Source: Nitrospirota bacterium | GTDB taxonomy: Bacteria > Nitrospirota > JACRHJ01 | Assembly: GCA_049801375.1 (NCBI GenBank) | Contig: JBARKJ010000046.1 | Span: forward strand, 3,204 to 67,203 | Length of the DNA: 64,000 nucleotides | Direction: 5' to 3' | Shown here: in pieces, positions 29,500 to 55,060 of the stretch | Position numbering within the stretch: the stretch's first letter is position 1 | Layout: every line of letters starts with the position of its first letter | Position numbers and translations under genes: made by a program | Notes under the pieces: model-generated | Told to the model about the DNA's origin: nothing | The model's database searches: none | What the model saw: only the letters and a program-made list of their open reading frames with translations

Positions 29500-29502
29500 T
29501 TT

Positions 29503-31827: not shown

Positions 31828-31865
31828 AAATCGCCTCCTTGATACTCGCCCTTTTAAAGTGCCAT

Positions 31866-31895: not shown

Positions 31896-31906
31896 CAAAA
31901 AAATTC

Positions 31907-34973: not shown

Positions 34974-36359
34974 CTACCGCTTCACTTCCGTGTACTCCGA
35001 CGCTTCCTTTTCCGCCTTCATTTTCTCCCATGCCTTATCCGCGATCCTGCAGTATTCCTCGGAGTATTTATCCAGATCCGGCGCCAGGTCGGTCAGAATC
35101 TTCTCCGCGCCTTCATGCGTGGGCCGCGCCCCGGAGGCCAGGACCGATTCGCGGACGAACTCCGGCTTGTCTATCATCATGCACGGGGTCAGCATGTTCG
35201 GGTTCGTCTTCTGCCGCGCGCGGATCATCTTGAAGAACGACGACATCAGCGCGTCTTTTATCGTCGTATTCCTGATGTTGTCCACGGCGAAATGGCAGAA
35301 TACGCAGGGTTCGATATCTCCGTGCGCGTTCACGTGCAGGTATTTCCTGCCGCCGGCTAAGCACCCGCCCACGACGTGCCCGTCGTTCCAGAAATCAGCT
35401 AACAGTATCGGCTTTGTCCGCCGGACGCGCCAGACCGTCTCCCGGAGCGTGCTTCTCTGCTGGGGCGTGGGCATAAGGTCGATGTTCGGCTCCCTGCCTA
35501 TGGGTATGTACGAGAAGAACCAGCCCACCGAGCAGCCCTTTTCAATCATAAGGTCATAGTACTCCTCCGAGGTAATGGTCTCGAAGTTCTTGCGGGTCGA
35601 GGTGCAGGAGAAGCCGAACAGTACCCCGGCCTCTTTCAAAAGGTCCATGGCGTGCATGACCTTCTGGAAATGTCCCTTGCCGCGCCGCAGGTCGGTCTCC
35701 TCCTCGAACCCTTCAAGGCTTATGCAGGGCAGGACGTTGCCAAGCTCGGCAACCTTCTTCACAAGCGTCTCGTCTAAAAGTCCGCCGTGGGTGAAAACGA
35801 GGAACGCGACATCGTGGTGCTTTTCGAAAATTTCCAGCAGGTCCTTACGGAAGAACGGCTCTCCGCCGGAGACGACGCAGAAGTAAACGCCCATCTCCTT
35901 CATCTGGTTTATGACGCCGTCGACTTCATCGAACGACAGTTCTTCGGTCTTTTTATAGCTGCCGGCGTAGCAGCCGAAGCAGTTCAAGTTGCAGCGCATC
36001 GAGGGCGATATGACATACAGGCCGGGTGGATAGAAACCGCCCCCTTCGTCCTGAAACGCCTTCCGCTTGTTCGTGCCTACCAGCAACTGGCCGACTATGA
36101 ACGTCTTCACCAGCCTCTTGCGGACGTTCGGGTGGGTCTCCCGGATTATCTTCTTCGCCACCTGCAGACTCGGGTGGCCGTCCATGAACATCTTCCGGAT
36201 CTCCCTTATCGCCTTGACGTACTTCTCTTTTTTGGCGAATTTTTCAGCCAGGTAGGTAAACCGGATTACATTTTCGTCTGAACTGTTGCCCAGAATCCCC
36301 AGCAGGGCGTCCGCCGCCTGCGTTATTGTATAATTTCGAAACTGCTCAAAATAACTCAT
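34974..36359 (-). CDS. Radical SAM protein with a C-terminal SPASM/twitch-like Cys-rich domain (terminal gene of the PKS-lipid cluster)
   Basis: The start was set at Met7 of the track ORF (MSYFEQF...). CNLNCFGCY (CxxxCxxC) preceded by a ~100-aa N-terminal domain; SGGEPF glycine-rich SAM motif; GGCLAGGRKYLHVNAHGDIEPCVFCH auxiliary-cluster motif. Confidence 0.75.
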   Translation of the reverse strand: MSYFEQFRNYTITQAADALLGILGNSSDENVIRFTYLAEKFAKKEKYVKAIREIRKMFMDGHPSLQVAKKIIRETHPNVRKRLVKTFIVGQLLVGTNKRKAFQDEGGGFYPPGLYVISPSMRCNLNCFGCYAGSYKKTEELSFDEVDGVINQMKEMGVYFCVVSGGEPFFRKDLLEIFEKHHDVAFLVFTHGGLLDETLVKKVAELGNVLPCISLEGFEEETDLRRGKGHFQKVMHAMDLLKEAGVLFGFSCTSTRKNFETITSEEYYDLMIEKGCSVGWFFSYIPIGREPNIDLMPTPQQRSTLRETVWRVRRTKPILLADFWNDGHVVGGCLAGGRKYLHVNAHGDIEPCVFCHFAVDNIRNTTIKDALMSSFFKMIRARQKTNPNMLTPCMMIDKPEFVRESVLASGARPTHEGAEKILTDLAPDLDKYSEEYCRIADKAWEKMKAEKEASEYTEVKR

Positions 36360-36429
36360 TACCGCTTCACCTCCCACTACGATTGCAGAGTATGTAATTT
36401 TTACAAAACAGGGGGCACTAAGTCAAGGA

Positions 36430-37329
36430 TTAATCCCAAAAATAATAAAAATTGAACCATTGTTCAGGGTGGCTGCGCACGTATTTTTCAAATACGGCGG
36501 CGATTTTCCTGATGTTTACCCGCAGGTCATGGTCAACGTCCCCGGTAGCCGTCATCTCTATCGGCGGCTCCGCGACAGGATGGTATTTGCCGTCCTCTCC
36601 CATTATTGTAAACGCGGGTATAAGCGGCACACCGGTTTTCATGGCCAAAAGCGCCGGCCCCCTTGGGAACGCCGCCGGCTTCCCGAAGAAATCCACCCTG
36701 ATGCCGGACCTGCTTAAGTCCCGGTCCCCCTGAATCGCCACCAGTTCATTTCTTTTCAGGGCGTTATACGCGCTCAGGGCAAACCCGGCGGGGTTGTCGG
36801 TGGATATTATTTTTATCCCCCTGATATCCTTGTTCCTGTCTAAAAGGCGGTTCTGCTCCTCCGAGTCGTAGAGGTGCTGGACGACGTTTACCTTGAACCC
36901 GAGGTATTTAAGCAGTATCCCGCCCAGTTCCCAATGGCCTATGTGCGCGGTCAAGATTATCGCGCCCTTCCCGCCCTCGACCGCTTTTTTAATATTGTCC
37001 AGGCCTAAAAATTCCGGCACGCGCGAGGCTATCTCGGCGTCGCTCATCCGCTCGAAACGGAAGAGGTCCAGCAGAAATCTCCCGTGGCTGCGCCAGAGCT
37101 TCCGCACCGTCATGAACTTTTCACGCTGCGGGACGTCCGGGCCCAGGACGTGGTCCAGGTTCCTTACCTGCTCGGGGACGATATTTTCGGATTTATAATA
37201 GAATAGCCAGTCGGCGATCCTGTCCCCTATCAAGTTGGCGAGAGGGGTCGGGATATATCTCGCCCCCCAGGAGATCCACCAGTAGATGGAGTGCTTGTCC
37301 AGCCTGTAGGAATGAGTCCCTTTAACCAT
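36430..37329 (-). CDS. Lysophospholipid/lipid A-type acyltransferase (LpxL/HtrB-family paralog inside the PKS cluster)
   Basis: 299 aa. AHIGHWELGG (HX4E acyltransferase motif); C-terminal HPEQWFNFYYFWD resembles the LpxL C-terminus. A second LPLAT copy, distinct from the lpxL at 16490-17443. Confidence 0.7.
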   Translation of the reverse strand: MVKGTHSYRLDKHSIYWWISWGARYIPTPLANLIGDRIADWLFYYKSENIVPEQVRNLDHVLGPDVPQREKFMTVRKLWRSHGRFLLDLFRFERMSDAEIASRVPEFLGLDNIKKAVEGGKGAIILTAHIGHWELGGILLKYLGFKVNVVQHLYDSEEQNRLLDRNKDIRGIKIISTDNPAGFALSAYNALKRNELVAIQGDRDLSRSGIRVDFFGKPAAFPRGPALLAMKTGVPLIPAFTIMGEDGKYHPVAEPPIEMTATGDVDHDLRVNIRKIAAVFEKYVRSHPEQWFNFYYFWD

Positions 37330-38884
37330 CAGCCAGCCCCAGTTTCCTCAAGGCTTCCCTCATCGGCCCCTGAAAAGGCCGGGGCGTCTCGGAGAGAAAC
37401 GCGTCCTTTACGTCGGAAGCTTTCACCGTACCGGATCTTACCGCCCCTTGCACCTTCTTCCGGATAGCCTTGCGCGCAATGGGCCGAAGTAGAGCCGGGA
37501 CTTCCAGCAGGACTTTCTCGAACACCTCCAGGGCGAAATCGTCCCACAGAGCTTCCTTCGGTTGTGAATCGGGACGTCTTCTCGAACTTGAATCCGAATA
37601 CATTCCCTGTAGAATAGCGTTGGCGGGATAGCAGACCCAGTCCGGATGGGTCTTGAAATATTCCCCGGCTATGGAATAAAGGCCGTCTCCCAACCTGTCC
37701 GAGACGTAAAACTTAGGCTCCATAAGCGTATCTTCGGGCGAAATTAATTTCTCATACACGGCGAGGCGGGCAAGGGGCGTGCCCGGATATATCCGCACCC
37801 CGGCGACGGCGAACACTTTATCGGGCTGCAGTTCCTCAAGGGCGTCGAAGGTCTCTTTAAGCGAATCCCCGTCTTCGCCCGGCCCGCCCAGGAGGAGGAA
37901 CACGAGGCTCATCAGCCCTGCCTCCTTCGCGGCCCGGACGGCGTTCACGGCCTCATTCTTTCCGAATTTTTTACCGAGCCTTGGGAGCATCCTGTCGGAC
38001 AGGGAATCCGCGCCCACCTCCACGCTCTCGCATCCCGCCCGCTTCATCTTGTCGAGGAGTCTTGCGTCCAGTCCGACGGGGCTTGCAAGGCATCCCCAGG
38101 AAGCTCTTATCCCGCGCTTAATTATTTCATCGCATACGGCAGCGGCATGGCCGGGCGGATTATTGAATATATTGTCCACGAAATAAAAAGGGGCCGTCAG
38201 TCCGGCGTCTATCGCGCTGCTCATCTCGCGCGCCACTTCCTCGGGGGGCCTCAGGCGCATTTCTCTTCCTTCCAGCCCCGGATAGGTGCAATAGACGCAC
38301 GAGAAGGAACAGCCGCGTTTAGACTGGATACCTACCATGTCGTAATCCTTGGCCGGGAAGAGGTCCCACGCTGGCAGGACGAGCGGAGAAAGGCTTAGCG
38401 GACTTGGCGGGTTCTGGAAATAGGAGCCGCCTTCAAACCGGCAAAGGCCGGGGACCTTGGAAAAAGGCGTCTTGCCGGTAAGCGCGTCCGCGAGCATCGG
38501 CACGGCCATCTCTCCCTCTCCGGCTATCCCGTAATCCGCTCCCAGGTATTCAAGTGCGGCCTCCGGCATGATGGAATATCCCGGCCCCCCCAAAACGACA
38601 GGGGCTTCCGTCTCTCGTTTTATCTGCCCGATGACTTCCCTGTAATCCGGCAGGAGAAAACGGCTGGAAGACTCGATATTCCTTATCGAGACGCCGACGA
38701 AATCCGGAGAGAGAGAACTGATTGCCCGCGTCAGTTCAGTTTCCGGGTCTTCCGCGAAAAGGAGGTCGAGCGCATGCACGTCGTGCCCCGCAAGGCGGAG
38801 CGCTTGAGCGACGAGCGCAAGGCCGAGCGGGGCCGCGGTGAACGGCTCGGTCTCCCTGTTCACGGATACCAACAAAACTTTCAA
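37322..38884 (-). CDS. B12-binding-domain radical SAM enzyme (class B rSAM) with a C-terminal PCP-reductase-like tail
   Basis: 520 aa. N-terminal cobalamin-binding Rossmann fold (MKVLLVSVNRETEPFTAAPLGLALVAQALRLAGHDV...), CSFSCVYC (CxxxCxxC). C-terminal ...PIARKAIRKKVQGAVRSGTVKASDVKDAF resembles the PF08369-type tail. Confidence 0.75.
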   Translation of the reverse strand: MKVLLVSVNRETEPFTAAPLGLALVAQALRLAGHDVHALDLLFAEDPETELTRAISSLSPDFVGVSIRNIESSSRFLLPDYREVIGQIKRETEAPVVLGGPGYSIMPEAALEYLGADYGIAGEGEMAVPMLADALTGKTPFSKVPGLCRFEGGSYFQNPPSPLSLSPLVLPAWDLFPAKDYDMVGIQSKRGCSFSCVYCTYPGLEGREMRLRPPEEVAREMSSAIDAGLTAPFYFVDNIFNNPPGHAAAVCDEIIKRGIRASWGCLASPVGLDARLLDKMKRAGCESVEVGADSLSDRMLPRLGKKFGKNEAVNAVRAAKEAGLMSLVFLLLGGPGEDGDSLKETFDALEELQPDKVFAVAGVRIYPGTPLARLAVYEKLISPEDTLMEPKFYVSDRLGDGLYSIAGEYFKTHPDWVCYPANAILQGMYSDSSSRRRPDSQPKEALWDDFALEVFEKVLLEVPALLRPIARKAIRKKVQGAVRSGTVKASDVKDAFLSETPRPFQGPMREALRKLGLADG

Positions 38885-38907
38885 TCTAGCTAATCCTCCG
38901 TGCGGCC

Positions 38908-39492
38908 CTATCTGCTCAGTTTCTCTACGAACTCCGATATCTTGTCGCCCGTGGCCTTAACCCTGTTTTCCACAAGCGCCCATTTGTCGCCGCCCTGTAG
39001 TCCGGAGGTGCTTTCGTGCTGGAATGTCGCGAGCTCCTTGCCGGTCTTGGCGTCTATGAGTTTGCCTTTCACTGTGATTCCCGCCTGGCCGGCACCCATT
39101 CCCCAGAACATCCTGCTGAATGTGCTCCCCATGTTAACCTGCGAGAACTCGCCCTCGATTATCATGTCCGCCTTGTCGGCGTTCTTGCCGTCCGGATCAA
39201 TGATAAAGGCGGTGACCCTGTCCCCGTTAAGCTCGTTCTTCATAGTCCGGGCTAGCATCTCCTGCCAGTCCTTCAGGTAGTTTTTGAGCTCTCTCTTCTC
39301 TTCGTCGTCCACGTTGTTGTACTCTACGTTATCAGTGGAGAATAGCTTGATCCCGATGGTCCTGTACTTCGAGAGGCTCTCGTCTGTCATTACGTCCTCT
39401 TTGTCGAGGACTCCCGGAGCCGACATCCTGGCTAAGCCATTAATGGGTATCAAAAGTGCGACAACGGCCATTATTAAAAGCATTTTTTTCAT
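38908..39492 (-). CDS. Secreted/lipoprotein-like protein of unknown function
   Basis: The start was set at Met15 (MKKMLLIMAVVALLIPINGLA signal peptide). No catalytic motifs. Gly-rich MFWGMGAGQAGITVKGK segment. Confidence 0.45.
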   Translation of the reverse strand: MKKMLLIMAVVALLIPINGLARMSAPGVLDKEDVMTDESLSKYRTIGIKLFSTDNVEYNNVDDEEKRELKNYLKDWQEMLARTMKNELNGDRVTAFIIDPDGKNADKADMIIEGEFSQVNMGSTFSRMFWGMGAGQAGITVKGKLIDAKTGKELATFQHESTSGLQGGDKWALVENRVKATGDKISEFVEKLSR

Positions 39493-39564
39493 TGTATTCC
39501 TCCTGTTCACAATCGGGTTAATAAATAAAAACACGGGTAACCCCCCTTGCCTCCTTTCGAGAAT

Positions 39565-40926: not shown

Positions 40927-40928
40927 TG

Positions 40929-42131: not shown

Positions 42132-42243
42132 TCAAAACCTTTCGTTACTTTCTTTTGGGTAAAAAGCAGCTAAGGCGCTGTGCATTTGTCCATCTTCGGA
42201 GCCTTCGCCTCCGTAAGGTAGAAGTAACCAAATAAAACCGGAA

Positions 42244-43155
42244 TTATAAACCAAGTACAGTTGCCAAATTACCGTACAAAATCTTTTGTTTGGAAGGAAG
42301 CGTTAAGGCTAGTGCGTTAACCGCGTCTATCGACGCCTTTATCTCCCGGTTCGCCGGGAAATCGCTCCCCCACAGCACCCTGTCCTCGCCGAATACATCG
42401 GCCGCAAGTTCCAGCATCTTTACGTCCGCCGTGCCGGAAGTGTCCACGTAAACTTTCTTCAACGTCTCCCCCGGTTCCTCACCCATGTCCTTCACTATCC
42501 CCCGGCCAAGGAGCATCTTGTACGTCCTTCCGTATCTGCCGGCAAGAAACGGCATCACGCCAGCAAAGCTCGCGAACACAAGCTTCAGCCGGGGGAACTT
42601 TTTCAGCAGGCCAGAGTCGATAACCCTGGCGAGGCAGAGCGTGGTATCGAACGCATACTGGAACACCGGAGTTATCAGCGGGTGGCGCAGCTTCTCGAAC
42701 CCGAACGGAGTAAGCGTAGTGGGATGAAAAAAGACCGGCGCTCCCCACCCTTCGGCCTTCTCGAAAAAAGGCAGGAACCTATCATCGTCCGGATAATTAC
42801 CGCCGTTGTTCGTCGGCACTGTAAATCCGGCCGCGCCCTGCGCCAATGCCTCTTCCCCCAGAGTGACCATATCGTCAGCCCCTGCCAATGGCACTGACCC
42901 AAGCCATAAAATACGCCCAGTCGACCTCTTTGCTATGTCCTTCACCGCCCCGTTATATACGCGCGCCGCATCCGTTTCCGCAAGGGCGGCCTTGATGTGA
43001 AAATCGGTAGTCGGGTATGATACCAGCGCGCGAGAAACGCCGGCTTCGTCCATTGCACGAAGATGGTTATCAATTCCGCCCCAGGACTCGTTGTAGAACG
43101 AGGCGTGTTTGATTACCTCGTCCGGCAATAGATGGAAATGCGAATCGAATATCAT
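42244..43155 (-). CDS. Amidohydrolase_2 family (ACMSD / hydroxybenzoate (de)carboxylase / 2-pyrone hydrolase-type TIM-barrel metalloenzyme)
   Basis: The start was set at Met17 (MIFDSHFHLL, the metal-binding HxH of the amidohydrolase fold). ...VLWGSDFP (C-terminal Asp ligand). 1-nt shared ATG/TAA overlap with the flavoprotein gene. Confidence 0.65.
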   Translation of the reverse strand: MIFDSHFHLLPDEVIKHASFYNESWGGIDNHLRAMDEAGVSRALVSYPTTDFHIKAALAETDAARVYNGAVKDIAKRSTGRILWLGSVPLAGADDMVTLGEEALAQGAAGFTVPTNNGGNYPDDDRFLPFFEKAEGWGAPVFFHPTTLTPFGFEKLRHPLITPVFQYAFDTTLCLARVIDSGLLKKFPRLKLVFASFAGVMPFLAGRYGRTYKMLLGRGIVKDMGEEPGETLKKVYVDTSGTADVKMLELAADVFGEDRVLWGSDFPANREIKASIDAVNALALTLPSKQKILYGNLATVLGL

Positions 43156-43880
43156 TAATATCTCAGCACTTCTTTTATCGTTTGAAACAGCTCCGAATTC
43201 CACACGTCGTATACTTGTTCGCCCACCGCGCGCGCCATCATTGTTGCTGGTTTATTCTCCTCATAGGACGGCATCGGCTTATCCAGCAGGGTTTTAAAAC
43301 CGGGATGCTCCATCGCGAAACGCTTTCCAACCATGCAGAGGTTCCTCATCTCCGCATCCATCAGGGCGATTCCAGCGCACGCGACCGACGTCGCCGTCAT
43401 TGCTTTCAGGTAATGGAACAGGTAATAGAGCGCGCCCTCCATGCCGAGCGCCGCGCCAACCGCGAGGTTACCCACCGGGGCGCCCTTGAAAGGGTTTTTC
43501 GGGTATGCGGTGATAGTCGTCCCCCATATCTCCGAACGCTCCTGTTCGTGCAGGGGGCGGGTCCTGTGCAAAAGGTTCATGACTATTGCGGGCTGTTGAT
43601 AGGCATAGACCGGGGACGAAAAAATAAACGCGTCCGATTCGGACATTTTATCAAAAATGAGCTTTCCGTCGTCGCCCTTGTCTTCAAGTAGAGGGCAGGT
43701 AAGGCCGCAGAGGCAGCGGTTGCATGCGAGGCATGGCTTCACGTTGTAATTTATCAGGCGGATAACTTCAGACTCGGCGCCTTTTTCCTCGGCGGCCTCA
43801 AGCGCCTTGCGCAGAAAATAATCGCTGGCGGATTTCTGCTTCCCCCTCTTGTGCGTCCCACAGATACCAAGTATCTTCAT
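43155..43880 (-). CDS. Iron-sulfur flavoprotein (Isf) / NADPH-dependent FMN reductase family
   Basis: The start was set at Met72 of the track ORF (MKILGICGTHKRG, the flavodoxin-like FMN phosphate loop). Compact Cys cluster CLACNRCLCGLTC, typical of Isf [4Fe-4S] binding. Confidence 0.7.
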   Translation of the reverse strand: MKILGICGTHKRGKQKSASDYFLRKALEAAEEKGAESEVIRLINYNVKPCLACNRCLCGLTCPLLEDKGDDGKLIFDKMSESDAFIFSSPVYAYQQPAIVMNLLHRTRPLHEQERSEIWGTTITAYPKNPFKGAPVGNLAVGAALGMEGALYYLFHYLKAMTATSVACAGIALMDAEMRNLCMVGKRFAMEHPGFKTLLDKPMPSYEENKPATMMARAVGEQVYDVWNSELFQTIKEVLRY

Positions 43881-44305: not shown

Positions 44306-44314
44306 TATTTTCCT

Positions 44315-45085
44315 TTAGTCCTCGAGTATAGCCACGGCGCGTGCCCATGCCGCGCCCGCGTTTTTTATCTTTACAGGGAAACAGGCGAACTTAAATCCGT
44401 GCGCCCTCGGGAGCGCGCCGAGGTTTGCGAGCCGCTCTATATGACAGTATTCTTTTTTTCTTCCCAGCATGTGTACCGGCCAGAGTTTTGAGCTGTCCGC
44501 GGTCGTTTGATAATCTGCTACCATATTCATAAAAGGCCTGTCCAGGCCCGGCGCGTCGGTCCCGATAGTCCTGATTCCAAGACCGAATAAATATTCCGCC
44601 GCACGGGCATCCAAACCCGCGAATTTAAGAAAATATTCCTTGGTGCCAAAGTACCTGTCCGCCCCGGTCCTGATGAGCGCGATATCGCCCGGTTTCGGCT
44701 TGTAATTTATTTCTTCTAAGCCCCGCCGCACATCATCCGGTTTTATTTCTCCGCCGGGCGGCAGACTTCTCATGTCAATTACAAAACCGTCCCCATAGCA
44801 CCATTCAAGGGGGACCTCGTCTATCTTCTTCGCCGGCCGTCCTTCCGATTCCGGCCCGAAATGCCACGGCGCGTCCACGTGCGTCCCGCAGTGAACCGAC
44901 GCCTGGACGGTCTCATGTGACAGGAACATCCCGCCGGGAAAAGTATCGCCGCCAATTTTCTTCTCTCCCGGAAATTTTTCCCCTACCCTCTCCGCGCCCT
45001 CCTCATGGCCAATCCGGGTCACCTGTACCGGAAAAGGTTCAGGCGCCAAGTCGTCTATAGGGGTGCTTAGGTCGATTATTTTCAA
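44315..45085 (-). CDS. Cyclase-family protein (PF04199; kynurenine-formamidase-like metal-dependent hydrolase / putative polyketide cyclase)
   Basis: 256 aa. ...SVHCGTHVDAPWHF (His-rich metal site, HxGTHxDxPxH) is diagnostic of the cyclase family. Confidence 0.75.
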   Translation of the reverse strand: MKIIDLSTPIDDLAPEPFPVQVTRIGHEEGAERVGEKFPGEKKIGGDTFPGGMFLSHETVQASVHCGTHVDAPWHFGPESEGRPAKKIDEVPLEWCYGDGFVIDMRSLPPGGEIKPDDVRRGLEEINYKPKPGDIALIRTGADRYFGTKEYFLKFAGLDARAAEYLFGLGIRTIGTDAPGLDRPFMNMVADYQTTADSSKLWPVHMLGRKKEYCHIERLANLGALPRAHGFKFACFPVKIKNAGAAWARAVAILED

Positions 45086-45318: not shown

Positions 45319-45328
45319 CCTTTACCTC

Positions 45329-47790: not shown

Positions 47791-48056
47791 CCCTCCACCC
47801 TCCTGACCTTGAACCGCACATACCCGCCGTCCGGGCAGGTTACGGTGTTGATGGAATTCGGGTCTTCCATGAAGGGGTACTTCGCACCGAAGTTCAGGGC
47901 GAAGAGCACCGGGAACAGCGTATGGTATGCCGCGCCGCAGAAACCTTCCGGCGTCCGAAGTCCCAGGACCTCCACCTCCTGGCCCCGCTCGTATTTATAA
48001 AAACACGGCCCGGAAACTTCCTCGACCGATATAACCATTTTTTTGGGATTTGCCAT
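47787..48056 (-). CDS. Small Cys-containing protein, paralog B (~89 aa; resembles TIGR04076-type proteins)
   Basis: The start was set at Met21 (MANPKKMVISVEEVSGPCFYKYERGQEVEV...PEGFCGAAYHTLFP...FGAKYPF...VTCPDGGYVRFKVRR). ATGA overlap with the KS-alpha gene. Confidence 0.5.
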   Translation of the reverse strand: MANPKKMVISVEEVSGPCFYKYERGQEVEVLGLRTPEGFCGAAYHTLFPVLFALNFGAKYPFMEDPNSINTVTCPDGGYVRFKVRRVEG

Positions 48057-48319
48057 TATAATTTCCTCACCTTGAACGTCAGTTTCCCACCGTCCGGGCA
48101 TGTCGTCCTGACGCAACCTTCCCCATCCTTGAAAGGGAATTCCGCGCCGAATGTCCAGGCATAAATAATCGGGAATAGCGAATGATACGCCCCGGCGCAG
48201 AAGCCGTCGGGCGGCGTCACGAAGTCCTTTACCTCAAAAGAATCACCCGCTTTATATCCCTTGAAACATTCTTTTTGAAGACTGTCCACCGTCAGCAGAA
48301 AACCCGGAAACTCCATCAT
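48056..48319 (-). CDS. Small Cys-containing protein, paralog A (87 aa; resembles TIGR04076-type proteins)
   Basis: ...KECFKGYKAGDSFEV...PDGFCAGAYHSLFP...FGAEFPF...TTCPDGGKLTFKVRK. The same architecture as paralog B (~45% identity by eye). TAATG stop/start overlap. Confidence 0.5.
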   Translation of the reverse strand: MMEFPGFLLTVDSLQKECFKGYKAGDSFEVKDFVTPPDGFCAGAYHSLFPIIYAWTFGAEFPFKDGEGCVRTTCPDGGKLTFKVRKL

Positions 48320-49314
48320 AAGCCTAACCTCGTTAGCATCTCTTCCGTTGATAGAAATTGATTTGTTTTTTCGATTTCCCTGACCAGCTCCGCCGCTTTT
48401 GAATTCAACTTTGCCTCCCGCCCCATCTCAAGCGCCACCCTCGCGACTTCGCCGTTTAAATAATCCACCTCCGACGAGCGGCCCCGCATGACGCTCTGCA
48501 GGACGGAGCCTGGAAGGGGGAGGTGGGAAAGGCCCCGCATGATATTGCCATATATCTGCGCCCCCACTTCCTCCGGGGCGTATAGCAGCGATTTCAACTT
48601 CTCCAGAGGCAGGTTCGGGAGGTCGGCCATCTCCATCCCTCCCGCTTCAAAAACCTCCCATGCTTCGCGCATCATCGACAGCCCCAATATGCATATCCTT
48701 TTATCCGAAAACGTCTCCTGCAGGTTCTTCCCCAGTACGCAGGCAAGCGCGTTATTCAGGTTCAGTACGAGCTTCGCGCGGTGCATGGCCTGGATGTTGC
48801 CGGCTACGCGCACTTCTAAAGACCCGGCCATGATACTCTTCGCCTTATCGACAATGCCGCCGCCGTCCGGGCCGAACGCCTTGCCTATAACCAGGCCGCC
48901 GGGAAAGTTATACGTTACATGCCCCGGCTCTTTATATGTCGCCCCGAACATAACGACCGAAGAAATGATTCGCTCGCTGCCAAGGATGCTTCCGGCTATC
49001 TCGTCGGCCATCAGGCCGTTCTGCATCGTCAGCGCCGGAAAATCACCCATGCCTGCAATCTGAGTACACGCCGTTTCCAGGTCCTGCGTCTTTACCGCGA
49101 GGAGGGCCAGGTCGGGAATGAACTCCAGCGACCTTGCGGCATATATGACAAAGTTATTCCTTGCCGAAATGCCGTCAAGCGACAGGCCTTCGCGGTTAAT
49201 CGCCCGGACCTGGCGCGGGTCGCGGCTGACAAGGGTAACAGCGTGTCCCTTCTCATGGAGCAGCGCCCCCGCAACACACCCGATAGCCCCCGCGCCGATT
49301 ACCGCTATTTTCAT
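48316..49314 (-). CDS. Ketopantoate-reductase-family NAD(P)H oxidoreductase (ApbA/PanE); candidate polyketide ketoreductase
   Basis: 332 aa. MKIAVIGAGAIGCVAGALL Rossmann N-terminus; C-terminal ApbA_C-like domain. Confidence 0.75.
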   Translation of the reverse strand: MKIAVIGAGAIGCVAGALLHEKGHAVTLVSRDPRQVRAINREGLSLDGISARNNFVIYAARSLEFIPDLALLAVKTQDLETACTQIAGMGDFPALTMQNGLMADEIAGSILGSERIISSVVMFGATYKEPGHVTYNFPGGLVIGKAFGPDGGGIVDKAKSIMAGSLEVRVAGNIQAMHRAKLVLNLNNALACVLGKNLQETFSDKRICILGLSMMREAWEVFEAGGMEMADLPNLPLEKLKSLLYAPEEVGAQIYGNIMRGLSHLPLPGSVLQSVMRGRSSEVDYLNGEVARVALEMGREAKLNSKAAELVREIEKTNQFLSTEEMLTRLGL

Positions 49315-49387
49315 AGTTTTCCTGAATCCGGATTTATAACATTAAGTCTTAAAAGTATTTTCAGATTCCGCCCAACCGGGATAACTG

Positions 49388-51253
49388 TTAATGAGGTTTT
49401 CCTGTTTTAACGTCCCAGCCGTGGCAGGCGTAATATTCGTCCAGCATCCCGTCGTACAAATCCCGGTCGAGCTTCATCGTTCGAGATTCGTCGTCCAGCC
49501 CGTCCTGCCATATGAGCGGCTCGAAATACCTCATGGGCGGGTAATCGTCTTTCCGCCCCACGCCCTCGTGGCAAATGAACCTGCGCTCCACATCCGTTAT
49601 AGCGTGTCCCGCCGCGAATACCTCTTCCGGCGCCATCTCCATTCCGCTGCCCTTCCTGATGAGGTCGCTGAATACATTGAAGCCGAATACGCCCGGCTCC
49701 GGCAAGGTGTGGAAGGCCAGGAGCTTGCACAGCCCCAGCGCGTCGAAGAGCGCTAGATAACTTTCCCACCACCAGACCACCCGGCCCTTGCCGCCATATT
49801 TCAGCGGGTCCGGCTCCACCGGCCCGCCATAAATTCCCGCCAGAAATTCCTTATCGAATTCGAACGCCTCCCAGGGACAGCGGCTTCGGAGGTGGTCTGC
49901 ACCGCGGGTTGCGGTGGAGACTCCAAGGGCGAACGCCTTGATGAACCGGAGGTCTACCGGGTCCGACTGCGGGAGGCCCTTCACCCAGATCATGCGTCCG
50001 GCCGAGTCCTTTCCGAATTGAGCCGACGCCGCCGATGCGCCGTTAGCAAGGACGTCTCCAAACCCTCTGCGGTATGCAATATCCTCCAGAAGCAGGGCGA
50101 CCGTCTCCGGGTCGTTCCAGTCCAGCTTCATCCCGCCGGTCTCGGCGTCTCCGATAAAACCTTCTTTATACAATTCTATTGCCCACGCTATTATGTTGCC
50201 GGCGGAGCTTGCGTCTATGCCGAGGCGGTTAAGCCTGTCGTTCAACATGAGTACCGCTTCGGAGGAATTTATCCCAAGCACCGGCCCCATATGTCCCATG
50301 ATGCCGTATTCCGGACCTTCGCCTGTCAGCCCGGCATGTTTTCCTTCAGTTATTTTATATGAATGCCTGCACGCCACCGCGCAGTGCCTGCATCCGCGTT
50401 TGCCCGAATAATATCGTGCTTCCAGCGTCTCCGGGCCAAGGTCCCCGGGCTCTTTCATTTTCGTCGAGAGGCCGTTATATGCCCGGCCCATCTCGATGTT
50501 CGTATTTATTACGTTATATAGATGCGCCGTCCCGAAACGCGCAAGGTCCTGCGTAAGGAATTCCGTCCGAAGCTTCGAATTTATTTCGTGGGTAAGGGCA
50601 GCAAAACCGTCCGGGTCGTGCGGCTGGACCTTCCCGCCGTCGAGCGCCACAACCGCCTTCAAATTTTTTGCCCCCATCAGGCAGCCCATCCCGGTGCGGC
50701 CCGCGGCATTCTTTCTGCCGTGCATAACGCATGCGAAGCGGACGAGGTTCTCACCGGCCGGGCCTATGCACGCGATATGGGCCTTCACGCCATGCTCCTC
50801 TTTTATGACCTTTTGCGCTTCGACTGTGTCCATGCCCCAGACGTGCGAGGCTTCTTTTATTTCCGCAGCCGTCCCGTCGCCAATTTTTTTTATAAGAAGA
50901 TAAACGGGTCTATCCGACTTACCTGTGATGACCAGATGCCTGACGCCCGTGGAGGCTAAAGCGCACCCGAAATCCCCTCCGATATTCGCGTCTCCTAAAA
51001 GACCGCTCTCCGGGCTCTTGCCGGTGATGGTCAGTCTGGCGGATGACGGCCCCGGCATCCCGGTTAGCAGGCCCGCGCCGAATATCAACGGGTTCTCCGG
51101 GCTTAGAGGGTCCAGGCCTTTCTTTGTATTTTCAAAGAGCAGCGCGCTGTTTATCCCCCGCCCGCCGATGTAATTGCGAAGGAGGCTTTCCGGAAGGTCC
51201 TTTACTTCGGAGGCCCCGCCGCTTAGATCTATATATAAGATTTTATGGTTCAT
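49388..51253 (-). CDS. Aldehyde:ferredoxin oxidoreductase (tungsten/molybdopterin AOR family)
   Basis: 621 aa. N-terminal KILYIDLSGGASEVKDLPESLLRNYIGGRGINS (AOR_N); internal CRHC-type [4Fe-4S] Cys ligands (GCRHCAVACRH). Confidence 0.85.
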   Translation of the reverse strand: MNHKILYIDLSGGASEVKDLPESLLRNYIGGRGINSALLFENTKKGLDPLSPENPLIFGAGLLTGMPGPSSARLTITGKSPESGLLGDANIGGDFGCALASTGVRHLVITGKSDRPVYLLIKKIGDGTAAEIKEASHVWGMDTVEAQKVIKEEHGVKAHIACIGPAGENLVRFACVMHGRKNAAGRTGMGCLMGAKNLKAVVALDGGKVQPHDPDGFAALTHEINSKLRTEFLTQDLARFGTAHLYNVINTNIEMGRAYNGLSTKMKEPGDLGPETLEARYYSGKRGCRHCAVACRHSYKITEGKHAGLTGEGPEYGIMGHMGPVLGINSSEAVLMLNDRLNRLGIDASSAGNIIAWAIELYKEGFIGDAETGGMKLDWNDPETVALLLEDIAYRRGFGDVLANGASAASAQFGKDSAGRMIWVKGLPQSDPVDLRFIKAFALGVSTATRGADHLRSRCPWEAFEFDKEFLAGIYGGPVEPDPLKYGGKGRVVWWWESYLALFDALGLCKLLAFHTLPEPGVFGFNVFSDLIRKGSGMEMAPEEVFAAGHAITDVERRFICHEGVGRKDDYPPMRYFEPLIWQDGLDDESRTMKLDRDLYDGMLDEYYACHGWDVKTGKPH

Positions 51254-51365
51254 GTTTTATACTTGTCACACCCGTGAAAACGGGTATCCGGGTGCCCCGG
51301 CGGGAATGACGGTCAGTCCCTTCTTAACCCCCTTTCTTAACATTAAGAAGGGGGGAAGAGGAGAG
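51254..51365 (-). other. Structured 5' leader of the AOR gene (two to three GC-rich hairpins)
   Basis: Minus-strand hairpins CTTCCCCCCTTCTTAA-TG-TTAAGAAAGGGGG and ACCCGTTTTCACGGGT lie immediately upstream of the AOR ATG. Not followed by a U-tract. Confidence 0.3.
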
Positions 51366-51611
51366 TTATGCCGGCATATCGAATCCCGCGCTCCTGGCCG
51401 TGTCCCGCATACTATTCTGAAACGGCGCCGGGGTCTCTGCAATCAACGCAGCTACTATATGGTCCTCTTCGACCTGCGCCGCGCCGCGTTCCTGCGCGTA
51501 TTCTTCCGCCTTCTTCCCCGCCAGTCTCTCCGCCATCTTCCGCTGAAAAAATGGGATCATAGATATCATTTTTTCAAATTTCGTCCGCGCCCCAGTCTCC
51601 CAGTCCATCAA
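51366..51611 (-). CDS. Small PCP-reductase-family-like protein (PF08369-like, 81 aa)
   Basis: MMDWETGARTKFEKMISMIPFFQRKMAERLAGKKAEEYAQERGAAQVEEDHIVAAL resembles the stand-alone PCP_red domain (W...A...L..IP.FxR). Confidence 0.45.
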   Translation of the reverse strand: MMDWETGARTKFEKMISMIPFFQRKMAERLAGKKAEEYAQERGAAQVEEDHIVAALIAETPAPFQNSMRDTARSAGFDMPA

Positions 51612-52129
51612 TGTCTCCTTATTAATGATTTGAAGAAACGTCTCCTGTCCTGCTCTTCAGGAGAAAGCCGATCCTCCTCTTGCTTCGAGACTTCAACACC
51701 CTCAAGGCTCGCCTTCAGAGAACGCAGAATCAGTTTTATATTATCGTCATGCATCCGCCGGTAAATGCGCGCCCACAAGATGCGGTTAAGATTCCCGACT
51801 ATTTCGTAGTCCATCAGGAAATGGACCTCGTTGAACCCCCGGTTGGGAATTATATATACCTTGTCCGTGCCCTTGAACATCCCGTTGATGAATTTCCTTG
51901 AGACCTCGCGTCCGGGCGTGATTGAAGTCACCTCGACGTCCCATTCCGGCGCGAACGGCCTGTGCACTTTCTGATGGAATATCGTGCCGACCTTTATCTC
52001 TCCCTTTTCTTCGCGGCTGTACTTCATGGGCGATTCATCAGGCCACCAGGAACTCTCGCCCCAGAGGATAACTTGTTCGAATATCTTTTCATGCGGCGCC
52101 TGTATCTCCACGAAGTGGTGGTTCAGCAA
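51608..52129 (-). CDS. SRPBCC-superfamily protein (Polyketide_cyc2-like) with a charged C-terminal tail
   Basis: 173 aa. HHFVEIQAPHEKIFEQVILWGESSWWP ... TRVT-like strand pattern. Weak family-level call. Confidence 0.4.
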   Translation of the reverse strand: MLNHHFVEIQAPHEKIFEQVILWGESSWWPDESPMKYSREEKGEIKVGTIFHQKVHRPFAPEWDVEVTSITPGREVSRKFINGMFKGTDKVYIIPNRGFNEVHFLMDYEIVGNLNRILWARIYRRMHDDNIKLILRSLKASLEGVEVSKQEEDRLSPEEQDRRRFFKSLIRRH

Positions 52130-53529
52130 TTCTTAAGCTCCGCGATCTTGTCCTCTACCAGCTTCTTGAACGGGGCGGGGGTAACCCTCTGCCATGCGGC
52201 GTAAATATCGTCCAGGCTCACTTTCCCGCCGTTTACATTTACCTCCGCGGACACTTTTTTCCCGGCGGTCGAACGGAAAATCGCGGGTACGAAATCAATG
52301 AGTTTTTTATGAGCCGTCTGCGCTTCGGAGTCCCATTCGCCCGCCGTCGGCTCCGGCTCTTCCCGGTAAATCTCGCCGGAAACGAGCGACTCCAAAAGCG
52401 CCTCGTACCTCCCTGCAACCTCCCCCGTCAGCGCCTTGTCCACCGTAAGCGCCCTCTTGGCGATCAGGGCGCAGTACCCGCACTCTTCGCAGTCACTCGT
52501 CGCGCAGTCCTTGGTCTTGAAGAAGCTTAAGAAGTTTGACGGGACCTTCGAGTTATCCAGGACCAGGCCTTCCGTCACCGGGTAATCCGTGATATCCGCG
52601 AACTCCATCAATTTAGACGTATTTATATATTCATCCCTCAGGAGATACTTTACATTCGCGGGCAGGAACGCCTTCTTGCGGGGAAGGTTCAGAAGCTCCA
52701 CGAGGTTCCCGTCAAACCGCCTGTCGGTATATGCCTTCAGGTACGACAGCAGCGTCTCGGTGGTCTTGTAACGGTCTATGATCTTAAGGCAATCAATGCC
52801 TATCATCTCGTAATCTTCCACGTCCTCGGGGCGTATCCAGCGTATCTTTATCAACTCCGCCGGGTTTTTTATCTTGTCCTTCGTGCAGGAGAAATAGCAG
52901 TGGTCAACAAGGAAGCCTTCGGAGGAATGATTACCCTGGGAGCCGTGTGTCATGACGTTCGCGTGGTAGAAAGAGCGCGGACATCCGTACAGGCAGCCGG
53001 GGTTGGCGATAAGGATAAGCTTGCACTTTACCGCTTTCCGGATGGCCTCCAGGGTTTTAAAATCACGGTTTATCTCCTCGGACAGCACGATAGCGTCCGC
53101 GCCCATCTCCTCCCAGTACTGGGCCTTCCGTACGCTCTCCACCCGCGCCCAGGAAGATACTACGGCTTTCAGGGCCGGATAATGTTTTTTGATTATCTGG
53201 AAGAGGTAGGGTATTGTGACCGTCACCCAGTCCGCGGAGGTCGCCTGCACCCATTCGACATGACGGAGTATCTTTTCGAACTCGTCTTTTCTGTACTCCC
53301 TGTTATCGAGACAGGAGGCATTCAGCAGGAAGTTGAAAGAATGCCCTGCTTCGCGTGCGGCTGCGATATATTTTTCGGCGTCGGCTTCCGTCACTTCCGG
53401 GGCGACGAAAGACGCCCTGCCCCCCGCGATAAGGCTTCCGGGGATGCCGCCGAACAGCTCCACCTTCGGGGAGCCTTCCAGCCCTTCAAGGAGCGCGGGA
53501 TCCCAATTACATGCCAGTTCGAATTTCAT
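52123..53529 (-). CDS. Cys-rich protein of unknown function (468 aa), putative Fe-S or metal enzyme
   Basis: Motifs GCLYGC, HCYFSC and DCATSDCEECGYC; GADAIVLSEE TIM-barrel-like stretch. No confident family assignment from sequence alone. Confidence 0.35.
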   Translation of the reverse strand: MKFELACNWDPALLEGLEGSPKVELFGGIPGSLIAGGRASFVAPEVTEADAEKYIAAAREAGHSFNFLLNASCLDNREYRKDEFEKILRHVEWVQATSADWVTVTIPYLFQIIKKHYPALKAVVSSWARVESVRKAQYWEEMGADAIVLSEEINRDFKTLEAIRKAVKCKLILIANPGCLYGCPRSFYHANVMTHGSQGNHSSEGFLVDHCYFSCTKDKIKNPAELIKIRWIRPEDVEDYEMIGIDCLKIIDRYKTTETLLSYLKAYTDRRFDGNLVELLNLPRKKAFLPANVKYLLRDEYINTSKLMEFADITDYPVTEGLVLDNSKVPSNFLSFFKTKDCATSDCEECGYCALIAKRALTVDKALTGEVAGRYEALLESLVSGEIYREEPEPTAGEWDSEAQTAHKKLIDFVPAIFRSTAGKKVSAEVNVNGGKVSLDDIYAAWQRVTPAPFKKLVEDKIAELKNC

Positions 53530-54086
53530 GCGGCCCCTTCCCTTCCAGCCTCAAGTCTGCCGATTATCCCTTCCAGAAACTTTATCTCCGCCTCCGAGTG
53601 CGCGAGGTAATGCGCGGGTATGAAAAGCATATGCTCCGGCGCGCCCTTCGATGCCAGTTCGTCTTTAAACCGCTCCGCTTCGGCGTGATACTCCTTAAGC
53701 CGCACCCGGAGTTCCCGGAGTTGAACAAGGAACTGCCCCGCATCCGATTCCCGGAGAAAATAGAAGGATATATCAAGCGCCAGGTGCGGACGCTCGAAGT
53801 TCGTTATGTTCTCCTGAAGGAGGCTGTCGAAGGTGCGGACGCCCTCGTCCGTGATATGGTAAATCTGCTTTTCGGGGTGCGCGGTGTCCTTGAGGACGCT
53901 CTTGGTCACAAGGCCGCGTTTTTCCAGGATTTTGAGGTTATGGTAGAGCGAGCCGGAGGTGATGGGCGCGACATGGACGAGTTCCTCGTCCACAAGCTGC
54001 TTTATCTCGTAGCCGTACATCGGCTTCCTCTTCAGAAGTCCAAGAAGAAGCACCTCTTTCGACATCGTGGTATTAAAGCCTGCCAC
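53526..54086 (-). CDS. PadR-family transcriptional regulator (head of the co-directional cluster)
   Basis: LLLGLLKRKPMYGYEIKQLVDEELVHVAPITSGSLYHNLKILEKRGLV is the PadR winged-HTH. An alternative start is Met8 at 54065. ATGA overlap with the next gene. Confidence 0.8.
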   Translation of the reverse strand: MAGFNTTMSKEVLLLGLLKRKPMYGYEIKQLVDEELVHVAPITSGSLYHNLKILEKRGLVTKSVLKDTAHPEKQIYHITDEGVRTFDSLLQENITNFERPHLALDISFYFLRESDAGQFLVQLRELRVRLKEYHAEAERFKDELASKGAPEHMLFIPAHYLAHSEAEIKFLEGIIGRLEAGREGAA

Positions 54087-54123
54087 GCCATCCCCCTTTT
54101 CGCGCTATTACGGCTTAAAATAG

Positions 54124-54133
54124 TTTACGTAAA
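54124..54133. promoter_or_regulatory. Perfect 10-bp palindrome TTTACGTAAA between the -10 element and the PadR start; candidate PadR operator
   Basis: Self-complementary. Positioned ~12 nt downstream of the predicted -10, where a repressor would occlude RNA polymerase. Confidence 0.35.
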
Positions 54134-54144
54134 ATAGCTTGCGT

Positions 54145-54174
54145 ATAATAGCAGGAGAAAACCTGGAATGTCAA
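54145..54174 (-). promoter_or_regulatory. Putative sigma70 promoter of the PadR-headed operon (-35 TTGACA at 54174-54169, 18-nt spacer, -10 TATTAT at 54150-54145)
   Basis: Consensus-like hexamers read on the minus strand, in the 104-nt gap between the S2P stop and the PadR start. Confidence 0.4.
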
Positions 54175-55042: not shown

Positions 55043-55060
55043 AAAATGTTATACTATCCC

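Follow-up and report, generated by a model that had tools for sequence, protein, structure and literature searches.

A predicted aromatic type II polyketide cluster with oxygen-independent tailoring enzymes in a Nitrospirota bacterium

We analysed a 64,000-nt stretch of DNA (the window) from an uncultured Nitrospirota bacterium (assembly GCA_049801375.1, contig JBARKJ010000046.1, positions 3,204–67,203), which carries a PadR-headed gene cluster encoding a ketosynthase (KS) pair, an acyl carrier protein (ACP), polyketide cyclases, radical SAM enzymes and a lipid-type acyltransferase. Listing and translation of open reading frames (ORFs), with starts refined against homologs, revealed an unbroken run of 21 minus-strand genes of ~19 kb from padR (53526–54086) to a SPASM-domain radical SAM gene (34974–36359 or 34974–36377, depending on the start). 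An initial annotation of this DNA had described the same single-strand chain from PadR at 54086 down to a radical SAM gene ending at 34974 but had counted 22 genes. Its family assignments were all reproduced by Pfam and NCBIfam hidden Markov model scans. Overlaps of 1–8 nt (ATGA/TAATG type), which it had described for most genes, occur at 12 of the 20 junctions between cluster genes; gaps of 2–23 nt were found at four of the remaining junctions and gaps of 70–112 nt at five, with 112 nt (42131–42244) separating the Amidohydro_2 gene from the first CrtI-like gene (CrtI-a).

Upstream of padR we identified a promoter-like site, whose edge coincides with the upper coordinate (54174) of the initial annotation, and 14-nt direct repeats (54116–54143) with a palindrome (54121–54136), for which we infer an operator role. 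Both the TTGACA…TATTAT pair and the repeat/palindrome motif are kept 5′ of padR in the related loci L001, L004 and L005. A terminator scan found no minus-strand terminator-like site within the cluster gaps, and promoter and terminator scans of the cluster body gave results no better than shuffles. Relatives were collected in a species-level scan (one genome per species) with a KS-beta alignment as query, and a presence table was built over 86 loci. The features of the cluster are listed in Table 1.

Table 1. Cluster features and boundaries in transcriptional order; the last column gives the number of loci with a homolog among the 86 loci of the presence table.
Feature	Position	Strand	Evidence and remarks	Loci (of 86)
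Promoter-like site	54145..54174	-	TTGACA-18 nt-TATTAT with TG extension; 11/12 matches vs 0.3 expected in shuffles; 5′ of padR	
Candidate PadR operator	54112..54143	-	Coding strand CTATTTTA-N6-CTATTTTA around perfect palindrome TTTACGTAAA; directly 3′ of the -10 element	
PadR-family transcriptional regulator, first gene	53526..54086	-	PF03551 E 2.5e-17; 4-nt overlap with next gene	31
Divergent U32-family Fe-S protein, 468 aa	52123..53529	-	PF01136; C-terminal PCP_red/DUF2621-like domain (aa 398-460)	9
Second SRPBCC protein (polyketide cyclase/dehydrase-like), 173 aa	51608..52129	-	Assigned via homologs	17
Stand-alone PCP_red/DUF2621-like protein, 80-81 aa	51366..51611	-	Weak PCP_red, DUF2621 matches	63
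Tungsten/molybdopterin aldehyde:ferredoxin oxidoreductase (AOR)	49388..51253	-	AFOR_N E 1.6e-70 (237 bits), AFOR_C E 3.2e-87 (294 bits)	
ApbA/PanE-type NAD(P)H ketoreductase	48316..49314	-	ApbA E 1e-29, ApbA_C E 5e-15, TIGR00745 147.9 bits (cutoff 141)	71
TIGR04076 small protein a, 87 aa	48056..48319	-	44.3 bits (cutoff 33); overlaps ApbA by 4 nt, next gene by 1 nt	
TIGR04076 small protein b, 89 aa	47787..48056	-	51.5 bits (cutoff 33); coupled directly to KS-alpha	66
KS-alpha, 418 aa	46534..47790	-	PF00109/PF02801; Cys-His-His intact; best PDB matches act KS 1TQY_A, AntD	80
KS-beta/chain-length-factor-like subunit, 402 aa	45329..46537	-	PF00109/PF02801; catalytically dead; 4-nt overlap with KS-alpha	86
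ACP, 78 aa	45082..45318	-	PF00550 (PP-binding) E 2.7e-9; IDS serine motif	78
PF04199 cyclase, OxyN/DpsY-type, Zn-dependent	44315..45085	-	PF04199 E 4.8e-31	74
Mono-domain TcmN/WhiE-type aromatase/cyclase (SRPBCC), 142 aa	43877..44305	-	Polyketide_cyc, Polyketide_cyc2	71
FMN_red-family flavoprotein (iron-sulfur-flavoprotein-like)	43155..43880	-	PF03358 E 6.6e-19; compact Cys cluster, Cys run CLACNRCLCGLTC	14
Amidohydro_2 protein, non-oxidative aromatic decarboxylase branch	42244..43155	-	PF04909 E 6.8e-24	58
CrtI/amine-oxidase flavoenzyme a (CrtI-a), 400 aa	40929..42131	-	Amino_oxidase E 2.7e-23	
CrtI/amine-oxidase flavoenzyme b (CrtI-b), 453 aa	39565..40926	-	Amino_oxidase E 2.6e-19; crtI_fam 96 bits (cutoff 238)	
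DUF4410 protein, 194 aa	38908..39492	-	PF14366 E 3.3e-21; signal-peptide-like N-terminus MKKMLLIMAVVALLIPINGLA	
B12-binding radical SAM, TIGR04072-like	37322..38884	-	B12-binding + Radical_SAM; C-terminal PCP_red/DUF2621-like domain (aa 447-516)	
LpxL/PIM-acyltransferase-like (Lip_A_acyltrans)	36430..37329	-	PF03279 E 3e-41; best model PIM acyltransferase 141 bits (cutoff 209)	
SPASM-domain radical SAM, last gene	34974..36377	-	Radical_SAM E 8.7e-20, SPASM E 5.9e-7	
tRNA-Phe(GAA), downstream cluster boundary	34891..34966	+	Rfam tRNA 68.8 bits; ARAGORN call	

The catalytic motifs of KS-alpha (STGCTAG, SHGSST and IGHPLS) are kept in all homologs and align to Cys169, His309 and His346 of the actinorhodin (act) KS. 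Among structures of the PDB, the highest bit scores were obtained with act KS (1TQY_A, 401) and Photorhabdus AntD (6SMO_B, 389), ahead of every FabF (≤349) and of the highly-reducing Iga11 KS (6KXD, 211); the putative anammox pair 9S5H scored 297 and 189 bits. KS-beta is Cys-less, as initially annotated, and both histidines are gone as well, with Ile in place of Cys, and Ala and Asn in place of the first and second His, respectively. At the Cys position its homologs contain I, V, T or R and never Gln, the residue which canonical chain-length factors (CLFs) have at the position matching the KS cysteine. The ACP scored 51–55 bits with ACP models, under their cutoffs, and its sequence GLGIDSTEMVEL carries a serine motif (GIDSTE) with the phosphopantetheine-attachment Ser; an exact-sequence look-up of this ACP returned no record.

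TcmN and WhiE are mono-domain aromatases acting on unreduced chains, and the 142-aa cyclase matched the structures of both (TcmN 2REZ, E = 1.6e-33; WhiE 3TVQ/3TL1, E = 1e-30 to 1e-33). The PF04199 cyclase has an intact HCGTHVDAPWH motif (HxGTHxDxPxH), and an ‘OxyN’ cyclase is part of the ancestral KS-CLF-ACP-TcmN-OxyN architecture (PMC7693217). For the 173-aa SRPBCC protein, the window copy gave no Pfam match; Polyketide_cyc2 was matched by 6 of 12 homologs with a best E value of 3.2e-6. No FabG (adh_short), FabA/FabZ, FabI/enoyl reductase, FabD or FabH was detected in the cluster by Pfam and NCBIfam scans, and the sole FabZ of the window belongs to a lipid A locus (~27486–28016).

Given that act KS and AntD are the nearest matches of KS-alpha, that KS-beta is dead, that a TcmN/WhiE match is present and that reductive enzymes of a fatty acid synthase (FAS) are missing, the cluster is, judged by its sequence, an aromatic type II polyketide synthase (PKS) rather than a FabF duplication or an aryl-polyene locus. 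A FabF duplication with standard FAS partners, which the initial annotation had named as a finding that would refute its reading, is thus not supported. Aryl polyene and flexirubin-type clusters comprise a KS/CLF-like pair, an ACP and an LpxL/LPLAT-type acyltransferase which attaches the product to an envelope lipid. The pair, the ACP and the LpxL-type acyltransferase are shared with the window, whereas the TcmN- and OxyN-type cyclases stand on the side of the window. The aryl-polyene hallmarks searched for in the cluster by the same scans, namely ketoreductase (KR)/dehydratase pairs, a second ACP, an ammonia-lyase/thioesterase starter module, a glycosyltransferase and MMPL/LolA export, were all absent. 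In the literature searched we found no published description of the architecture, its accessory genes, its product or a characterised homolog, and the view that the cluster is of no characterised type was upheld.

The initial annotation had also proposed wholly O2-independent enzymology. In support of this, no P450 or flavin monooxygenase family exceeded the threshold in the cluster in Pfam/NCBIfam scans, and the case is strengthened by the protein formerly listed as a large Cys-rich protein. This protein was found to be a divergent U32 family member (Peptidase_U32 PF01136, E = 8e-12, 45.4 bits, cutoff 22.4; PDB 5D88, E = 5.7e-11), which makes it a candidate O2-independent hydroxylase. It shares a U32 domain with the prephenate-dependent O2-independent hydroxylases UbiU/UbiV, TrhP and RlhA, and it has conserved Cys groups that would suit a 4Fe-4S cluster. 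Its gene neighbourhood would require that an aromatic ring be hydroxylated anaerobically, as happens in the anaerobic synthesis of ubiquinone (PMC6747719, PMC10990095). Cysteines 179/183/211/215 (CX3CX27CX3C) are invariant and a second invariant group is formed by residues 342/347/350/353 (CX4CX2CX2C). This extra group, the fused PCP_red-like domain and the lack of a partner subunit or an SCP2 (UbiT) gene nearby distinguish it from these distant homologs, and with its relatives (1622 cluster representatives among 1.84 billion in an exhaustive search) it forms a small family set apart from UbiU, UbiV, TrhP and RlhA.

Three tandem U32-DUF2621 paralogs, one of them 42% identical to the window protein and two with weak DUF2621 matches, are encoded in locus L092 (1–11449). 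Their neighbours encode UbiE-like methyltransferases, a fusion of PTase_Orf2 (ABBA prenyltransferase) with radical SAM and SPASM domains, a further SPASM radical SAM and a HemN-like radical SAM enzyme. L092 appears to be a distinct cluster that tailors a prenylated aromatic compound without O2, and this anaerobic aromatic-tailoring neighbourhood backs, by association, the assignment of the U32 protein as a hydroxylase.

Further redox and decarboxylating enzymes are encoded in the same half of the cluster. The best PDB match of the AOR was the enzyme of P. furiosus (1AOR, 281 bits, residues 6–614), whereas BamB (4Z3W) matched the N-terminal domain only (154 bits); a function as BamB-type ring reductase was rejected because the general AOR is the better match. 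The Amidohydro_2 protein matched best LigW 5-carboxyvanillate decarboxylase, ACMSD, IDCase and gamma-resorcylate decarboxylase. The sole PDB match of the FMN_red protein was 7D38 (E = 2e-8).

Two components are candidates for new accessory parts of the PKS. TIGR04076 protein b is 53–98% identical across its homologs (53–74% outside Nitrospirota), which makes it better conserved than KS-beta; it has three conserved cysteines and an AF2 model with a pLDDT of 84. In other phyla the TIGR04076 pair is fused to one tandem-repeat protein, and the pair may be a PKS accessory subunit. The other component is a PCP_red/DUF2621-like domain of ~70 aa which is present three times, as the 81-aa protein and fused C-terminally to the U32 protein (E = 4e-7) and to the B12 radical SAM (E = 1e-8), and which may serve in substrate hand-over or docking.

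The initial annotation had regarded type II PKSs as especially rare in anaerobes. This is not so for the present family, as relatives of the PKS core were found in at least 469 species-level genomes of uncultured anaerobes. The best 80 loci were all from metagenome-assembled genomes (MAGs), of which Omnitrophota formed the majority, beside Nitrospirota, Thermodesulfobacteriota (including ORM2a), Dehalococcoidia, Syntrophaceae and ‘Planctomycetales’ bins. Nitrospirota MAG contigs from Danish metagenomes encode proteins 89–98% identical to those of the window (ACP 80%) in full synteny. Other, independent contigs of Nitrospirota MAGs repeat this gene order at 51–97% protein identity, and so the arrangement is not a product of chance.

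Two architectures were distinguished. A cluster found in MAGs of Omnitrophota, Thermodesulfobacteriota and Dehalococcoidia (L002, L006, L018–L086), the nearest uncharacterised relative, has in common with the window a core of PCP_red-like protein, ApbA, TIGR04076 (53–74% identity), KS-alpha (53–64%), KS-beta, ACP, PF04199 cyclase, TcmN-type cyclase and Amidohydro_2, often with PadR. It lacks the U32 protein, CrtI-b, DUF4410, the TIGR04072-like radical SAM, the LpxL-like protein and the SPASM radical SAM, while FMN_red and CrtI-a occur in few loci. Loci outside Nitrospirota contain a BchE-like B12 radical SAM (TIGR02026, 176–216 bits), a short-chain dehydrogenase/reductase (SDR) ketoreductase and a major facilitator superfamily transporter, often with PNP, IF-2B and class II aldolase genes; Nitrospirota loci contain instead the U32 protein, the second SRPBCC protein, FMN_red, two CrtI-like enzymes, DUF4410, the TIGR04072-like radical SAM, the LpxL paralog and the SPASM radical SAM.

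The U32 gene and the BchE-like radical SAM gene (60 loci) never co-occurred among the 86 loci, and in loci with called genes one or the other lies immediately 5′ of the 81-aa gene. BchE is an O2-independent oxygen-inserting cyclase. Since BchE itself inserts oxygen without O2, the mutual exclusivity looks like a functional swap between two anaerobic solutions for oxygenation. The PKS core is of a recognisable type; the TIGR04076 partner, the PCP_red-like domain, the set of tailoring enzymes and this apparent U32/BchE swap are new.

In L002 (1925–6637) and 26–35 other Omnitrophota-type loci, a PNP_UDP_1 gene, two IF-2B-family genes and genes for a class II aldolase and an aldehyde dehydrogenase were observed. 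This set resembles 5′-deoxyadenosine/dihydroxyacetone phosphate-shunt salvage of radical SAM by-products and might serve this purpose or, alternatively, the supply of starter units. Irregularities were seen in two relatives, of which L090 is from Nitrospirota. In L005 (KS-alpha 79% identical), a Y1_Tnp (IS200-like) transposase and two small ORFs (14598–15119) lie between the TcmN-type cyclase and FMN_red genes. In L090 (6725–7929), CrtI-a was called as two pieces of 173 and 242 aa, which could reflect a frameshift, a pseudogene or an assembly error.

Among described systems, the den, ant (AQ-256 anthraquinone, Photorhabdus), pcy and clr (clostrubin) clusters are most similar in plan, having like the window KS-alpha, CLF and ACP genes followed by TcmN-type and OxyN-type (PF04199) cyclase genes (PMC7693217). 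The dendrubin, AQ-256 and pyxidicycline clusters represent an ‘ancestral’ non-actinomycete KS-CLF-ACP-TcmN-OxyN plan (PMC7693217). Anthraquinone-type polyphenols are the products of the whole group of four. The den cluster contains neither methyltransferase nor oxygenase genes (PMC7693217), whereas the window couples ~14 tailoring genes to the PKS. In comparison with these four clusters, the window has the OxyN-type cyclase gene before the mono-domain TcmN-type one, and the second SRPBCC gene stands apart. It lacks counterparts of the KR AntA, the lyase AntI and the CoA ligase AntG, a phosphopantetheinyl transferase (PPTase) and the CLF Gln. It has in addition the U32 protein, the AOR, two radical SAM enzymes, the Fe-S flavoprotein, CrtI-like enzymes, the LpxL-like protein, the TIGR04076 pair and the PCP_red-like domain. 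The producers of the den and clr products are strict anaerobes.

An ‘unexplored, primarily non-actinobacterial’ CLF clade, which includes Nitrospirae and Omnitrophica, has been catalogued (PMC10132072), and antiSMASH-style ‘ladderane’ calls have been reported in such phyla (PMC9902471). Cluster I of anammox bacteria resembles the window in its pair of a KS and a dead KS, a dedicated ACP, a phytoene-dehydrogenase homolog and a B12 radical SAM (bioRxiv 10.64898/2026.05.19.726425; PMC2649909). It differs by the presence of amxFabZ; the window has no FabZ in its cluster but aromatic cyclases and a decarboxylase, and its host is no anammox planctomycete.

The last six genes form a tail that sets the Nitrospirota loci apart. 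CrtI-a gave sub-threshold matches only, to protoporphyrinogen oxidase, HpnE and CrtD, and CrtI-b shares 25% identity with the amine oxidase encoded in L087, a lipid-type cluster. The DUF4410 protein, confined to Nitrospirota loci in the presence table, is a probable envelope protein or lipoprotein. The B12 radical SAM scored 339.6 bits with TIGR04072 (‘lipid biosynthesis B12-binding/radical SAM’, ladderane-type), under the cutoff of 360, with the next model at 168 bits; some of its nearest non-cluster relatives (40–44% identity) carry the same ‘lipid biosynthesis B12-binding/radical SAM’ annotation at NCBI. The LpxL-like protein is an extra paralog, 25% identical to the housekeeping LpxL of the window (16490–17443), and both have the HxxxxE motif. 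The SPASM radical SAM gave sub-threshold matches only, of the NirJ/AhbD type, and its gene follows the LpxL-like gene in six Nitrospirota loci of the presence table as well as in L089 and L090.

In the CrtI-like, B12 radical SAM, LpxL-like and SPASM genes, the tail partly resembles a ‘lipid biosynthesis/ladderane-type’ cassette. The claim of the initial annotation that a PKS combined with radical SAM enzymes and a lipid A-type acyltransferase is an undescribed architecture therefore holds in part: no published description was found, but the tail is not without likeness to that cassette. In the window, L089 and L090, the cluster lies just upstream of a same-strand BamA-Skp-LpxD-FabZ-LpxA lipid A locus. 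The cassette-like tail, its retention with the PKS core, the shared PCP_red-like domain and the adjacent lipid A locus make it plausible that the product is transferred to a lipid or envelope acceptor.

Taken together, these data suggest that the window encodes an anaerobically tailored aromatic type II polyketide pathway in one PadR-controlled operon of an anaerobic Nitrospirota bacterium, to which we assign a probability of roughly 0.7; confidence in the single tailoring steps is much lower. KS-alpha, KS-beta and the ACP, possibly together with the TIGR04076 proteins, would assemble an unreduced poly-beta-keto chain from malonyl units. The TcmN- and OxyN-type cyclases and the second SRPBCC protein would fold and aromatise this chain, the first ring probably being closed between C9 and C14 as by TcmN and WhiE, and a phenolic polyketide of two to three rings is probably formed. 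The LigW/ACMSD-type amidohydrolase would then take off a ring carboxylate and the U32 Fe-S protein would hydroxylate a ring without O2, in the manner of UbiU/UbiV. Ketone, quinone and acid/aldehyde redox steps might be carried out by the ApbA reductase, the Fe-S flavoprotein and the AOR. The tail enzymes (two CrtI-like enzymes, the TIGR04072-like and SPASM radical SAM enzymes, the LpxL-like protein and DUF4410) may alkylate or remodel the product further, with the LpxL paralog joining acyl-ACP species to a lipid or envelope acceptor. PadR would keep the operon repressed until a phenolic ligand builds up.

Several observations weigh against this pathway. KS-beta is nearer to FabF (242 bits) than to the act CLF (182 bits) and has Ile in place of the Gln by which canonical CLFs achieve decarboxylative priming. 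The U32 protein matches the hydroxylase TrhP weakly (23 bits). The Cys motif of the U32 hydroxylase family is CX6CX15CX3/4C (PMC6747719), from which the CX3CX27CX3C spacing of the window protein differs. The cluster contains no PPTase, malonyl transferase, thioesterase or exporter. The five gaps of 70–112 nt leave room for internal promoters, in which case the PKS core and the lipid-type tail could be separate units, and for a tail limited to one phylum the co-conservation with the core could stem from shared ancestry and not from shared function. Moreover, each catalytic step past the family assignment is a prediction from sequence.

The alternative that holds up best splits the locus into two neighbouring but functionally separate units, the PKS core (42244–54086) and a ‘ladderane-type/lipid biosynthesis’ cassette (34974–42131) acting on ordinary membrane or lipid A acyl chains, which would explain its position beside the lipid A locus. 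We consider it unlikely. The 112-nt gap between the Amidohydro_2 and CrtI-a genes would mark the border, although this gap contains no terminator-like site. In agreement with a split, CrtI-b, DUF4410, the LpxL-like protein and the SPASM radical SAM are missing from non-Nitrospirota loci, and CrtI-a is absent from Omnitrophota-type loci, with homologs of 44–48% identity in a few Thermodesulfobacteriota/Syntrophobacter loci. The TIGR04072 score of the B12 radical SAM and the complete lipid A/LPS locus directly downstream on the same strand point in the same direction. The B12 radical SAM is also 42% identical to the enzyme of L087, a ladderane-like or aryl-polyene-like cassette (PMC2649909; bioRxiv 10.64898/2026.05.19.726425) with four KS, an ACP, FabA, a KR, a SPASM radical SAM, an amine oxidase, MMPL, GT2 and an acyltransferase. 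The tail of the window, however, shares part of this L087-type gene set only and itself encodes neither a KS nor an ACP or ligase, in contrast to the four KS and ACP of L087. Furthermore, the PCP_red-like domain of its B12 radical SAM recurs in the U32 and 81-aa proteins and so ties the halves together, and core and tail are contiguous in every Nitrospirota locus that is long enough, down to a KS-beta identity of 61% (L015).

In a second alternative, which is very unlikely in our judgement, the product of the KS pair is not aromatic but a specialised fatty acid or a polyene (of the aryl-polyene, ladderane-like or highly-reducing type II kind), and the SRPBCC proteins are dehydratases or lipid carriers. 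The FabF-leaning KS-beta without the CLF Gln would fit such a system, SRPBCC folds do include dehydratases and lipid-transfer proteins, and the TIGR04072-like radical SAM, the CrtI-like enzymes and the LpxL-type acyltransferase recall aryl-polyene and ladderane-type clusters (PMC2649909; bioRxiv 10.64898/2026.05.19.726425). Yet KS-alpha ranks with the aromatic act KS and AntD above FabF and far above the highly-reducing Iga11 KS (211 bits), the 142-aa protein is a specific TcmN/WhiE match (E = 1.6e-33), a PF04199 cyclase and an aromatic-acid decarboxylase homolog are among the core genes, and the cluster is devoid of FabZ/FabA dehydratases, SDR ketoreductases and enoyl reductases.

That the locus serves the anaerobic degradation of aromatic or phenolic acids, by means of the AOR, the LigW-type decarboxylase, a U32 hydroxylase, flavoproteins and PadR and with thiolase-like KS genes, is barely credible. 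Phenolic acids are frequent effectors of PadR regulators, anaerobic aromatic catabolism is known to employ AOR, LigW-like decarboxylases and Fe-S flavoproteins, and a homologous core occurs in ORM2a, a MAG of a benzene-degrading culture, but a KS-alpha/dead KS-beta pair with a dedicated ACP and TcmN-/OxyN-type cyclases has no known catabolic precedent, the cluster has no CoA ligase/transferase, beta-oxidation enzymes or ring reductase, and BamB is a poorer match than the general AOR.

Aromatic polyketide tailoring is understood almost wholly via O2-dependent oxygenases. If the cluster encodes an anaerobically tailored aromatic polyketide pathway as proposed, an aromatic type II PKS combined with only O2-independent chemistry would offer a concrete system for studying how anaerobes hydroxylate and alkylate polyketides. 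Because the PKS core is so widespread among species-level genomes, the metabolite it makes is probably common in anoxic sediments and groundwater but has gone unseen. The mutual exclusivity of the U32 and BchE-like enzymes represents a natural experiment on enzyme function, and the TIGR04076 partner and the thrice-used PCP_red-like domain are candidate new PKS accessory components. Transfer of the product to an envelope lipid by the LpxL paralog, if it really takes place, would modify the outer membrane in a novel way.

A more specific version of this pathway can be formulated, although we give it a low probability: the cluster would direct the synthesis, without O2, of a redox-active (hydro)quinone of polyketide origin that is anchored to the membrane or to lipid A, and would represent the polyketide-based equivalent of quinone biosynthesis in an anaerobe. 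In parallel to ubiquinone, the PKS would supply the ring, the LigW-like decarboxylation would correspond to UbiD and the U32 protein to UbiU/V, the B12 radical SAM would perform C-alkylation and the LpxL paralog the attachment to lipid. If this were true, TIGR04076 would be a hitherto overlooked subunit on which an ancient lineage of anaerobic type II PKSs depends, and in the anaerobic oxygenation of polyketides the U32 and BchE-like radical SAM enzymes would be able to stand in for each other.

The downstream boundary of the cluster is set by tRNA-Phe, which lies 8 nt past the last cluster stop codon on the opposite strand, inside the 208-nt gap between the SPASM stop codon and a gene for the beta subunit of a 2-oxoacid:ferredoxin oxidoreductase (OFOR). 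Rfam identified only this tRNA in the intergenic gaps and no riboswitch or other RNA element (B12, SAM, Moco/Tuco). A genomic island at the tRNA was considered and is not supported: no second copy of the tRNA 3′ end and no sign of an att site were found elsewhere in the window, no integrase was present among the scanned genes, the G+C content is uniform and the downstream flank is kept in relatives. One point left standing beside the island reading is that the upstream flank is not alike between relatives. The OFOR beta (TPP_enzyme_C) and gamma (POR) genes (33486–34765, minus strand) are followed by GNAT and HemN/HemW-like genes and have no alpha gene nearby; in L089 and L090, too, the cluster is followed by this orphan pair. 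Although it is kept beside the cluster in relatives, we rejected the pair as cluster members, as it lies past the tRNA and the 208-nt gap and the alpha subunit is absent from every locus seen.

Further downstream, a near-complete outer-membrane and lipid A/LPS-core locus (13879–31923, minus strand) encodes BamA, Skp, LpxD, FabZ, LpxA, LpxI, LpxB, an MsbA-like ABC protein, DUF374, WaaA, LpxK, the housekeeping LpxL, two GT9 heptosyltransferases and a HAD phosphatase. A GFO/IDH/MocA oxidoreductase and a DegT aminotransferase (GnnA/GnnB-like) in this locus suggest a GlcN3N-type lipid A. A gene for a DUF559/REase_MTES_1575 endonuclease-like protein (18586–18996, minus strand) is located between those for WaaA and LpxK.

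On the PadR side, the window contains M50 protease, Ogt (O6-methylguanine methyltransferase) and metallo-beta-lactamase-fold genes (54191–56680), in contrast to ACP, ExbB, ExbD, CbiC and aminotransferase genes in L004 (1–3319). Together with the conserved downstream flank, this difference points to rearrangement at the PadR side. The metallo-beta-lactamase-fold and Ogt genes are separate in the window (55494–56680, minus strand), whereas they were called as one 386-aa fusion in the 96%-identical relative L001 (1011–2171).

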